From: a virus
IMG/VR virus record: IMGVR_UViG_3300032046_000014
Location: 20,304-84,303 of that record
DNA: 64,000 nt
Strand: one strand, 5' to 3'
Below are positions 43,189-49,901 of the stretch, one piece after another. Numbering within the stretch: position 1 is the first letter of the stretch; each line of letters opens with the position of its first letter. The notes beneath the pieces were generated by a model. It ran no database searches, was not told the DNA's origin, and saw only the letters and a list, made by a program, of their open reading frames with translations. A program made the translations under genes and the position numbers.

Positions 43189-43262
43189 GGCGGTCTGTGC
43201 GGGAGTTGAACCCGCCTCAGTCGAGTGACAGTCGACCATCCGCACCGGCGGACTTACAAACC
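43188..43262 (-). tRNA. tRNA-Asp(GTC), CCA encoded
   Basis: Cloverleaf; GTCGA-CTGTCAC-TCGAC anticodon arm. Confidence 0.9.
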
Positions 43263-43268
43263 TTGATG

Positions 43269-43339
43269 TGCACCCGCCGGGATTTGAACCCGGCCGTCAG
43301 CGTGGAAAGCTGAGATCCTAGCCACTGGACCACGAGTGC
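43269..43339 (-). tRNA. tRNA-Gly(TCC)
   Basis: Cloverleaf; TCAGC-TTTCCAC-GCTGA; GGTTCAAATCC. Confidence 0.9.
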
Positions 43340-43351
43340 GATGATCCTGTT

Positions 43352-43513
43352 TGGTGCAGAGGACCGGATTTGAACCGGCGCGTCCGCCTTGCGGAAAGAG
43401 GTTTCTCACAGGCTGAACAGTCGTTCCTAACCGTCCTTAGCTTCGAGCTTACGACTTGAGCTTCGAGCTGGGTCTTAAGCCTCTCGCTTTCAGCCATGCT
43501 TGGCTACCCCTGC
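43352..43513 (-). tRNA. tRNA-Leu(TAA) with a 71-nt 37/38 intron (43403-43473), CCA encoded
   Basis: Long variable arm TCCGC/GCGGA; central BHB helix CTTA/TGAG. Confidence 0.88.
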
Positions 43514-43541
43514 ATTAACGGATGGTACTGATAGATCGTAC

Positions 43542-43617
43542 TGGTGGAAGCTGTGGGATTCGAACCCACGGCCTACTGCTTGCAAAGCAGCTGCTCATTC
43601 CGCTGAGCTAAGCCCCC
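43542..43617 (-). tRNA. tRNA-Ala(TGC), CCA encoded
   Basis: Cloverleaf with G3:U70. Confidence 0.92.
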
Positions 43618-46336: not shown

Positions 46337-46389
46337 ACGTCAGGTTCCTCAACACCGAAAACTCTTAAGATTCCACAGAATTATAAACT

Positions 46390-46945
46390 TTTCCCACAAC
46401 ACCAAAACTAAACAGCACAAACAACACAAACAGCACACACCACACATAAACACAATATCATAAAGTCACAAAAGACACAGAGCAGCAAAAATAGAAGAAG
46501 CAACAAAAGACCCTCCGGCACCGCGTCAACGCCGTACACAAAATACACGCCGTCCACAACATCAACACCGTACACAAAACTTGTTACCCACCCCATCACC
46601 TACTAACCGCCCCTTCACCCGCCTACCCATCCTACACCATCACCTACCAAACTCTCCAACACCACCCCAACAGTCCAAAAACAGAACCCACCAACCCACA
46701 AACACAATCCCCCCCACAACATAGCGGGTGGTTTAATTGTTTATTCAATTATTTGTCATTTTGGTTGGTTTGTTGGTTGGTTTGTTTTAGTGTTAACTGT
46801 TGGTTGGTTTTTCTGTTTGGTTCGGTGTTATGGTTGGTTCGGTTCGGGTCTCTTGTTTGGTCACTGCAGAAAATCGTTAGGCTTTTTCTGGAACGGTTTT
46901 CTGTGTATCGTTATGGTGAGTTTAATTGTTTATTATCCTTTTTTG
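46390..46945. other. AC-rich to GT-rich compositional switch element 1 (centre about 46722); candidate origin
   Basis: About 330 nt strongly depleted of G/T, then strongly G/T-rich; coincides with the gene-strand switch. Confidence 0.6.
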
Positions 46946-46959
46946 CGAAAAGTATATAT
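46946..46959 (+). promoter_or_regulatory. BRE-TATA promoter of the rightward early operon
   Basis: CGAAAAGTATATAT. Confidence 0.65.
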
Positions 46960-47022: not shown

Positions 47023-47118
47023 ATGACAGTAAAAAACTTCATCATTGGAACGCTTCTCATAAGCACAATGGCAGCGATAACCTACTATTTCACCTTTATG
47101 TATAGGTGGTTCGCATGA
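47023..47118 (+). CDS. 31-aa single-TM peptide
   Basis: AGGTGA RBS; MTVKNFIIGTLLISTMAAITYYFTFMYRWFA; ATGA overlap with the next gene. Confidence 0.55.
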   Translation: MTVKNFIIGTLLISTMAAITYYFTFMYRWFA

Positions 47119-47642
47119 ACAGCGATTACCTAAGCGTCAACAAGACAACTGGAAAACCACACTATACATACGGACAGAGCCAACAATGCCATGAACGGGA
47201 GCACGGACTGTTCTTTCATCCGAGAACGGGAGAAAAGATAGTTTGCCTAAGCGAAGCCAACATACGATATAAGACGATCTGGAAGCCAAAAGCGGAACGC
47301 ATGATCGTCAACGGTGACACGGTGATCAAGGTTCCAAGCACCGACAAGGTCAACGGCACAATACCGCAAACAGCTTATCACCGAATAGTAAACGCGATAA
47401 CGGAAACACCAGTCAAGGTATGTAAGACGGGAGACGGTCACACGTTCCTAGAGAATCCCGCAGCATGGCAGCTTAAAGCGGTCAACACTAAGAAGCACTT
47501 TTACGGAGAACGCAAGCATGGATACGCAAGCAAGGCAATAATCGAGGCACACCAACAACCAAGATGGAGACCGCCAGAAAAAGAAGCACCTCATAAGCTG
47601 AGGATAAGCAGCAGCGGTAAACTCAAGCTCTGCAGAATCTAA
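47115..47642 (+). CDS. Basic hypothetical protein
   Basis: ATG 47115 after a GGTGG RBS. Confidence 0.6.
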   Translation: MNSDYLSVNKTTGKPHYTYGQSQQCHEREHGLFFHPRTGEKIVCLSEANIRYKTIWKPKAERMIVNGDTVIKVPSTDKVNGTIPQTAYHRIVNAITETPVKVCKTGDGHTFLENPAAWQLKAVNTKKHFYGERKHGYASKAIIEAHQQPRWRPPEKEAPHKLRISSSGKLKLCRI

Positions 47643-47966
47643 GCGCAGAGTTGGCAAGCGGAACCTAAAAGGTTCATTCCGCAAGCCTCGAGCACTGGGA
47701 ACCTTTGAGAAGCCTAAGTTTCCCTTGGCGAGAAAATCCGCTGAGAAGCCATAGCTTTTCAATCCTAGTTATTCCCTTCGGAGAATAGCTACATACGCAA
47801 GCTCTTTGCGTACGACGGACTGACCCGTAGTGGAATGAAAGTCCGAATCCACGAAATTTTAGTAGTGGATCAAAAAGGGAGAAAATAATAAAGCCCAAGC
47901 CCATGGGCACACATCCAATTAATGACAAAGTTTTCATTAATCCGCAAAGCTCGACAACTTTGCGCT
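47642..47966 (+). ncRNA. Candidate large (325 nt) multi-hairpin ncRNA
   Basis: 12-bp closing helix AGCGCAGAGTTG/CAACTTTGCGCT, inner TCGAGC/GCTCGA, at least eight hairpins. Confidence 0.75.
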
Positions 47967-48043
47967 AAGGTGAAAACTTAAACAAAGATATTATACGATG
48001 AGGTCGCCAGTAGCGCGGCGACTGAGCTAAGCTCCTAACATTC

Positions 48044-48108
48044 TTTTTTCTATTCTCCCTAGCAAGGGATTGACAATGACCGTGAAACTCGGTCGAAAAT
48101 AGAAAAGG
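48044..48108 (+). ncRNA. Type III hammerhead ribozyme, U3-A8 variant; predicted cut after C48055
   Basis: Stem III TTTTCTAT/ATAGAAAA, UUC site, stem I TCCCT/AGGGA, core TTGACAA+T, stem II GACCG/CGGTC, GAAA. Confidence 0.8.
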
Positions 48109-48224
48109 ATGGTGATATAAAGAATGTTAAGCGGAAACCAAGCTCGAAAACTTCGCCTTAGAATACTCGGCGAAGACCAGTACAAGATCCTCATGCAACT
48201 GCATGGACGGAAGGTGAAGACGCA

Positions 48225-48467
48225 ATGAGAATACCAGTAGGCAATAGTTGTTCATGGCTTCCAGCTGAAGCGCTCGCAAAGATCACGAAGCTGCAGCTGT
48301 ACCGTGAAAGATGCATGAACTGGAACGTCAAAGCCTTCATGCCTAAGCAGGAAGCGGCGTTGGTAAGAGTTCCTATGACAGCGAAGCCACAGGAAACATT
48401 AGCGAGCCTGTTTGAACGATTGCAGATTCTCACAGACAAGATGGATGAAGGGCTGCAAAAATGTTGA
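48225..48467 (+). CDS. Hypothetical protein
   Basis: AGGTGA RBS. Confidence 0.55.
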   Translation: MRIPVGNSCSWLPAEALAKITKLQLYRERCMNWNVKAFMPKQEAALVRVPMTAKPQETLASLFERLQILTDKMDEGLQKC

Positions 48468-48868: not shown

Positions 48869-48881
48869 CCCTTCCTTTTGT

Positions 48882-48954
48882 GGACCGTAAGTTGAGCAGC
48901 CTCCACGACGGCGCGGTCTGGAACAGGATTATTCACCTGTACTAAGTGCTCAGC
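48882..48954 (+). ncRNA. HDV-like self-cleaving ribozyme 1; predicted cut 5' of G48882
   Basis: P1 GGACCGT/GCGGTCT with G1.U; P2 GTTGAGCA/TGCTCAGC; P3 GCC/GGC; L3 TCCACGAC; P1.1 CC/GG; P4 ACAGG/CCTGT; J4/2 ACTAAG (catalytic C48942). Confidence 0.92.
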
Positions 48955-48987
48955 AGATTACCTGCAGGTGCAGGAGGTGAAACAAAG

Positions 48988-49821
48988 ATGATGAAAAAGC
49001 AAGTTGCGATACTTCTGGTTGCTGCATTGGCAACTGTACTTGTAGCTTCAGCCATAGTCAGCGCATGTGATCCTCCCAGATGTCCACCGGGTCCTCAAGG
49101 ACCAATTGGACCAGCAGGTCCTAAAGGTGACAAAGGAGATGTAGGAGCAACTGGCCCAACAGGACCTCAAGGTGCAACAGGAGCAACAGGACCAGAAGGT
49201 GCAATAGGACCAATGGGTTCTCAAGGACCCAGAGGAATAAGAGGACCGCAAGGTGAAACAGGATCTCAAGGGCTAACAGGACAGGCTGGAATCAACGGAA
49301 CCGATGGAGTTAACGGAACTGACGGAGTCAACGGAACAGATGGAACTGACGGAAAAGACGGTTCCACTTGGTATAATGGAAACGGCACAGCAACTTCAGA
49401 CTTAGGCAAGGATGGAGACTACTACCTACAAACAACAAACGGTGACATCCTCTACAAGATAGAAGGAACTTGGACTTTCCTGATGAACATCAAAGGCTCC
49501 GATGGAAGCAATGGACTCAACGGACTCGATGGACTCAACGGACAAGACGGCATCGATGGGAAAGACGGAATTGATGGTCTCAATGGAACAGATGGAGAGG
49601 ATGGTAAAGATGGACTTGACGGTCTTAACGGACAAGATGGACTCGATGGAGAAGATGGATTCAACGGACAAGACGGCAATGATGGAACAGACGGAATGTC
49701 TGCACAATCTTCAAGCGGATGCGATTGCAAACTATTGATTCTAATGCTCTTCCTGACCATGATAGCAATCTGGATAATCGCAATCAAAATGCTAAGGTGC
49801 AAGTGCAAGCAGCCCAACTAA
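48988..49821 (+). CDS. Collagen-like surface protein (signal peptide, Gly-X-Y repeats, C-terminal TM anchor)
   Basis: GGAGGTGA RBS; two Gly-X-Y blocks; several NGT sequons. Confidence 0.88.
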   Translation: MMKKQVAILLVAALATVLVASAIVSACDPPRCPPGPQGPIGPAGPKGDKGDVGATGPTGPQGATGATGPEGAIGPMGSQGPRGIRGPQGETGSQGLTGQAGINGTDGVNGTDGVNGTDGTDGKDGSTWYNGNGTATSDLGKDGDYYLQTTNGDILYKIEGTWTFLMNIKGSDGSNGLNGLDGLNGQDGIDGKDGIDGLNGTDGEDGKDGLDGLNGQDGLDGEDGFNGQDGNDGTDGMSAQSSSGCDCKLLILMLFLTMIAIWIIAIKMLRCKCKQPN

Positions 49822-49843: not shown

Positions 49844-49901
49844 GAGTTGCAAGCTGAGACGCCTCCACGTGGCGCAACTTGGAATACGCGAAGAGCTCAG
49901 C
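49844..49901 (+). ncRNA. Minimal (P4-less) HDV-like ribozyme 2; predicted cut 5' of G49844
   Basis: P1 GAGTTGC/GCAACTT with G1.U; P2 GCTGAG/CTCAGC; P3 GCC/GGC; L3 TCCACGT; GG; J4/2 CGAA. Confidence 0.85.

Follow-up and report, generated by a model that had tools for sequence, protein, structure and literature searches.

A probable type III hammerhead ribozyme with a variant core in a viral operon leader

An RNA encoded at positions 48044-48108 (+ strand) of a viral DNA stretch of 64,000 nucleotides (the window, part of IMG/VR record IMGVR_UViG_3300032046_000014) can be drawn as a three-way junction that resembles a hammerhead ribozyme, with a core that departs from the consensus. Is this RNA a self-cleaving ribozyme, or does the resemblance have another origin? 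Based on its modeled structure and on comparison with published variants, the motif is probably an active type III hammerhead in which U3-A8 replaces C3-G8 and a U is inserted between A9 and G10.1.

The motif and its genomic setting

The letters and coordinates first proposed for the motif agree with the window base for base, including the UUC at 48053-48055 and the GAA plus A15.1 at 48095-48098. The core UUGACAA (48070-48076) and the extra U after A9 (48077) are also present where the original prediction placed them, and RNAfold reproduces the proposed three-way junction as the minimum free energy (MFE) structure (-19.4 kcal/mol, z -2.25). The motif contains the following elements.

48044-48054, + strand: 5' strand of stem III, pairing with 48098-48108; U16.1 is 48054
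48055, + strand: C17, unpaired, positioned by the descriptor; predicted cut 48055/48056
48056-48069, + strand: stem I hairpin, UCCCU/AGGGA with loop AGCA, 5 bp (48056-48060/48065-48069)
48070-48077, + strand: core strand U3 U4 G5 A6 C7 A8 A9 and the inserted U
48078-48094, + strand: stem II hairpin, GACCG/CGGUC with loop UGAAACU, 5 bp (48078-48082/48090-48094), from fold and descriptor
48095-48097, + strand: G12 A13 A14
48098-48108, + strand: 3' strand of stem III; A15.1 is 48098

Stem III has 11 bp, the outermost two of which are U.G pairs. The helix order is III-I-II-III, as in a type III hammerhead, in the MFE fold, in the descriptor (see below) and when the motif is folded in its intergenic context. 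The invariant junction bases U4 G5 A6 (48071-48073), A9 (48076) and G12 A13 A14 (48095-48097) are in place, and U16.2-U16.1-C17 corresponds to 48053-48055. The A15.1-U16.1 pair is formed by A48098 and U48054, and position 17 is C48055, that is, not G. Stem II begins directly after the inserted U (48077) with G48078-C48094, which is the G10.1-C11.1 pair. At the C3 and G8 positions are U48070 and A48075, so that the canonical base identities are absent while Watson-Crick pairing potential is retained; in total, 11 of the 13 hammerhead core bases match. Watson-Crick complementarity between the loops AGCA and UGAAACU is not evident.

The source record is a linear IMG/VR contig of 84 kb that is 78% complete. 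Its minus strand encodes an HK97-type capsid protein, a prohead protease and a portal, and its + strand encodes an AAA ATPase, an ATP-dependent DNA ligase and a C5 methylase. Features of the setting that are relevant here are as follows.

43191-43617, minus strand: cluster of four tRNA genes
47643-48043, + strand: conserved, hairpin-rich and non-coding; extends from the 178-aa gene to the hammerhead motif
48111-48116, + strand: Shine-Dalgarno-like GGTGAT preceding the 34-aa ORF
48124-48228, + strand: 34-aa ORF, previously unlisted, the first cistron of the downstream operon

ARAGORN reports two of the four tRNA genes in the cluster. One member (43355-43513, minus strand) has a 74-nt insertion in its anticodon loop and a long variable arm. 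The cluster with this insertion suggests an archaeal host, and the virus is probably an archaeal tailed virus. Near-identical DNA is found in sediment metagenomes and a relative in groundwater; a search of sequencing runs listed no RNA run as carrying the sequence. The divergent intergenic region that separates the minus-strand and plus-strand gene blocks (46380-46950) is densely filled with short direct repeats, first A/C-rich and then G/T-rich (D3, D5, D6 and D11), and may be an origin or control region.

The motif lies between a gene for a 178-aa protein (47106-47642) and the 34-aa ORF, whose stop codon overlaps the ATG (as ATGA) of an 80-aa ORF at 48225. Differences between the 178-aa gene and its counterpart in a relative are mostly at third codon positions, and the gene is real. 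In the relative's locus L003, the 34-aa ORF retains its frame through a 3-nt deletion and has one synonymous change. The motif is thus flanked by a real gene and a frame-conserved ORF, which places it on the transcribed strand, and it ends 15 nt short of the operon's first cistron. A minus-strand ORF that runs across the motif is frameshifted in L003. A promoter-like sequence, ATATTATA at ~47990, was considered and rejected, as it is not conserved in L003.

The ~400-nt region immediately upstream of the motif (47643-48043) is a candidate for an unclassified structured RNA, judging from its predicted folding. Differences in the relative cluster in predicted loops and linkers, and Rfam reports no family match in this region at the gathering threshold or at E<=10.

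Conservation, chance matches and Rfam models

One close relative with readable DNA is available, IMGVR_UViG_3300035179_000773 (loci L002 and L003). Searches of IMG/VR, JGI metagenomes and GTDB with the flanking 135-aa, 178-aa and 555-aa proteins and with a five-sequence alignment recovered only these two loci as close matches. The 178-aa protein has four homologues in protein searches (91, 63, 48 and 43% identity), and blastn with the intergenic region found no match among GenBank phages.

The motif is 98.5% identical to its counterpart in L003, with one change in 65 nt (48063 C>A, in loop 1), and, among contigs from four DNA runs, a 1390-nt groundwater contig of run X7, ~92% identical, carries no indel within the motif. 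The intergenic region (482 nt) diverges from that of the relative by ~6%, and the third codon positions of the 178-aa gene diverge by ~25%, a comparison that involves one relative whose single difference in the motif lies in a loop and not in the stems. By these rates of divergence, selection acts on the nucleotide sequence of the intergenic region. Because the hairpin-rich region is conserved as a whole, this conservation is not specific to the ribozyme.

The junction persists in an RNAalifold prediction for the entire intergenic region (486 nt, window and relative). We also conducted searches using a relaxed descriptor that accommodates types I, II and III, accepts either a canonical or a U3-A8 core, and permits one extra base after A9. 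In the 84-kb virus record, the sole strong hammerhead-like match is the motif at 48044-48108, and in the 17-kb relative there is no strong match besides its counterpart. The descriptor detects no canonical hammerhead in either of these sequences.

To what extent could such a match arise by chance? Random sequence with the composition of the window (400 Mb) yields 34 variant-core type III matches with at least 3/3/4 bp, and the best of them has at most 16 bp of total pairing, compared with 21 bp in the motif. The decay in the number of random matches fits a factor of 0.375 per added pair. Extrapolation to the stem quality of the motif gives a chance rate of ~6e-11 per nucleotide or ~8e-6 per window, and ~2 matches over 250,000 windows (~3e10 nt); these figures leave out the G10.1-C11.1 pair, the intergenic position, the strand and the conservation. 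Since about two chance matches are expected across the 250,000 windows, the descriptor match by itself does not settle the matter at that scale.

Pattern scans of larger collections gave little that resembles the motif. A fixed-length sequence pattern without a pairing rule matches 64 times in 596 Gb of prokaryote genomes, which is approximately the number expected by chance, and pairing in these matches extends to at most 8 bp. The fixed-length scan of IMG/VR gave one additional match, which does not fold. No further type III copy appears in the pattern scans of IMG/VR and prokaryote genomes or among the metagenome matches listed.

The original prediction also held that the motif would be missed by standard searches, and this proved correct: no Rfam hammerhead model reports it, even when the search is confined to 81 nt at E<=10. 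RF00008, RF00163 and RF02275-7 give no match to the motif at the gathering threshold or at E<=10. Under the same two settings, Rfam searches of the 64 kb and of 801, 401 and 81 nt identify no hammerhead for the motif, and RF00008 finds nothing in the whole virus record. A covariance-model score in Rfam is an operational criterion and not a defining property of hammerheads.

A relaxed pattern scan of metagenomes is informative about this silence. Among the matches listed are at least ~10 type I mini-hammerheads that share the UUGA-N-AA core followed by U (metagenome contigs L018, L055, L057, L068, L080, L101, L110, L114 and L117). Their layout is UUGA-N-AA, one U, stem II, GAA, a palindromic ACGU stem III and then C or U. 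The sequences of stems I and II vary between contigs, and pairing is retained. When five of these contigs were searched with Rfam, a canonical type I hammerhead was found (L055:14-58, 47.3 bits) and none of the U3-A8 motifs. The models thus miss the U3-A8 mini-hammerheads while finding the canonical one, a concrete demonstration that current Rfam models are blind to the U3-A8 core, and their silence on our motif is therefore weak counter-evidence. The mini-hammerhead family matches a published variant in Penelope-like elements (see below), and the metagenomic examples are most likely from eukaryotic retroelements.

Published variants and competing explanations

Both deviations from the hammerhead consensus have precedents. 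Several natural hammerheads show covariation at positions 3 and 8, with U3 and A8 in place of C3 and G8 (Perreault et al. 2011, PMC3088659, section 8), and, in the statement that this paper bases on Przybilski and Hammann 2007, such U3-A8 hammerheads are active in vitro. About 1,300 U3-A8 mini-hammerheads are known in Schistosoma Penelope-like elements, where a base between positions 9 and 10.1 is conserved (Cervera and De la Peña 2014, PMC4209133). These mini-hammerheads and our motif have an identical variant core. However, they are of type I, have a minimal palindromic stem III and occur in many copies, whereas the motif is a single-copy type III structure with an 11-bp stem III in a virus operon. 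In the CChMVd (+) hammerhead, an additional nucleotide, A10, separates A9 from G10.1 (De la Peña and Flores 2001, as related in PMC3705267). According to the account of this position in PMC3705267, changing A10 to U increases the trans-cleavage rate 3-4-fold, and U is the most active base there. The insertion site is the same as in our motif, although CChMVd is a viroid and its hammerhead has the canonical C3-G8.

The genomic arrangement also has a counterpart. In the haloarchaeal viruses HF1 and HF2, a core-variant hammerhead precedes the first ORF of an early polycistronic transcript by 13 nt, and the mapped 5' end of this transcript is <=3 nt from the cut site (PMC3088659). Our motif resembles this RNA, HHphage, in being a core variant, in its apparent presence in an archaeal tailed virus, and in its position just before an early operon (15 nt here). 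HHphage differs in carrying two additional nucleotides beside C3 and in requiring very high Mg2+ or salt, whereas the motif combines U3-A8 with a U after A9 and was sampled from sediment and groundwater.

Compared with type III hammerheads in general (RF00008), the motif shares the helix order, an open stem III, hairpin-closed stems I and II, and the nucleotides U4 G5 A6, A9, G12 A13 A14, A15.1-U16.1, C17 and G10.1-C11.1. It differs by having U3-A8 in place of C3-G8 and the extra U after A9, by the silence of the covariance model, and by its source, which is not a viroid, satellite or eukaryote but a tailed virus that encodes archaeal-type tRNAs.

Since both core oddities and the genomic arrangement have been described before, the ribozyme itself would not be of a new kind. 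The original reading as a variant hammerhead is borne out by all features that can be evaluated in silico, namely topology, 11 of 13 core bases, G10.1-C11.1, A15.1-U16.1, C17, sense strand, intergenic location, conservation and the presence of other ribozyme candidates nearby. The novelty that it implied is overstated, because U3-A8 covariation (2011, 2014) and insertion between A9 and G10.1 (CChMVd) were already published. What the motif adds is a type III example to the short list of natural hammerheads that combine U3-A8 with a base after A9.

Other explanations of the structure deserve consideration. One is that the junction derives from a hammerhead whose cleavage has been lost or is negligible, and that it persists as a stable fold, for instance a protective or protein-binding operon leader or the 3' terminal domain of the upstream RNA. 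Two core deviations occur at once, loop-loop pairing is not evident, conservation spans the full ~480-nt region and not the core alone, and the Rfam models are silent. Moreover, the legend to Figure S7 of Perreault et al. (PMC3088659) lists inactive hammerhead-like RNAs that carry more than one deviation. Nevertheless, we regard loss of activity as unlikely, given that the base changes constitute a compensatory pair known to retain activity (PMC3088659), that the insertion is the best-tolerated base at a tolerated site (PMC3705267), that the remaining catalytic and junction bases are intact, and that an identical core is found again in a large natural family.

Alternatively, the motif might be a domain of a larger, unrelated non-coding RNA (47643-48123) or of a riboswitch-like leader, in which case its likeness to a hammerhead would be accidental. 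Its contiguity with a hairpin-rich, conserved and unclassified region, and the adjoining Shine-Dalgarno sequence, are what one might expect of such an RNA. This explanation is quite improbable, as it requires ~11 junction bases, both closing pairs and all three junction lengths to coincide by chance, for which our estimate, once a three-way junction is granted, is ~1e-8 or less, and no Rfam family of any kind matches.

An origin by chance is unlikely, and that the motif is a functionless match of this sort seems very improbable. Although ~2 relaxed-descriptor matches are expected over ~3e10 nt, the rate of ~8e-6 per window would be reached before considering that the motif has G10.1-C11.1, is intergenic and on the sense strand, is conserved relative to synonymous sites, and has ribozyme candidates as neighbors (see below). 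Finally, we rejected as extremely unlikely a reading as a solitary CRISPR-repeat-like unit that acts as an RNA decoy of the host CRISPR system, which would account for a weak Rfam match to CRISPR-DR36 (48059-48088, 15.4 bits, E 0.15-1.5, ending in GAAAC), because this match is not significant and is further weakened by the sole change in the relative (48063), the window contains neither a second copy nor an array, and the three-way junction would be left unexplained.

Possible roles in the operon

If the motif is an active variant hammerhead, as we consider probable, it would be transcribed within the + strand early/replication operon. Once stems I-III have folded, G12 and the 2'-OH of residue 8 would catalyze attack by the 2'-OH of C48055 on the next phosphate, and the transcript would be cut between 48055 and 48056. 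By analogy with the hammerhead class, cleavage would leave a 2',3'-cyclic phosphate on the upstream product, which comprises the ~400-nt structured RNA as well as the 178-aa gene, and would define the 3' end of the structured RNA. On the downstream side, the RNA would begin with a 5'-OH and retain the folded ribozyme as its leader, close to the Shine-Dalgarno sequence and 15 nt from the first start codon. We infer for the motif, in addition to catalysis and this end chemistry, a role at RNA ends: it might separate the upstream from the downstream RNA and set the ends of both. The HF1/HF2-like placement lends support to the view that small ribozymes serve archaeal tailed viruses in fixing the ends of their mRNAs.

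Fast cleavage in natural hammerheads usually needs a tertiary contact, but Watson-Crick pairing between loops 1 and 2 is not evident in the modeled structure, and the two core deviations together may lower the cleavage rate. Within the 5' strand of stem III is a run of six T residues (48044-48049), and since oligo-T tracts can terminate transcription in archaea, many transcripts could end there before the ribozyme is complete. Termination at this run and cleavage by the ribozyme would give the upstream RNA nearly identical 3' ends.

Two further ribozyme candidates, both resembling HDV ribozymes, are present in the same operon.

48882-48954, + strand: HDV-like candidate 1; matches HDV_ribozyme (RF00094) with 22.3 bits at 48880-48954, below threshold
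49844-49900, + strand: HDV-like candidate 2, minimal, without P4; matches HDV-F-prausnitzii (RF02682) with 21.5 bits, below threshold

In candidate 1, P1, P2, P3, P1.1, P4 and CUAAG are all readable by eye. Inspected in the same way, both candidates exhibit the elements of the double pseudoknot: a 7-bp P1 starting from G.U, a P2, a GCC/GGC P3 closed by the loop UCCACG, GG for P1.1, and a J4/2 of the form C(U/G)AAG. Between the two copies, four pairs of P1 are changed on both sides. The presence of two HDV-like candidates makes a hammerhead in this operon more likely.

The HDV-like copies flank a collagen-like gene (48946-49821). The relative without this gene has a single HDV-like copy (L003 4915-5005), which is a hybrid: its 5' part is like candidate 1 and its 3' part like candidate 2. 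The sequences look as if the collagen cassette had been gained or lost by recombination between the HDV-like ribozymes.

Together with the HDV-like candidates, the hammerhead would cut the operon into gene-sized pieces. Each HDV-like RNA, too, would remain as the 5' portion of the RNA released downstream of its cut, and thus all three elements would act alike. We tentatively propose, from these predicted structures, that one hammerhead and two HDV-like ribozymes might split an archaeal tailed virus's early operon into cassettes that bear 5'-OH and 2',3'-cyclic-phosphate ends. This picture of the operon, with three putative ribozymes of two classes, a gene cassette flanked by ribozyme candidates and a candidate unclassified structured RNA of 400 nt, holds more potential than the hammerhead by itself. 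RNAs with 5'-OH and 2',3'-cyclic-phosphate ends are substrates of RtcB ligase, and therefore the pieces of the operon could even be circularized.
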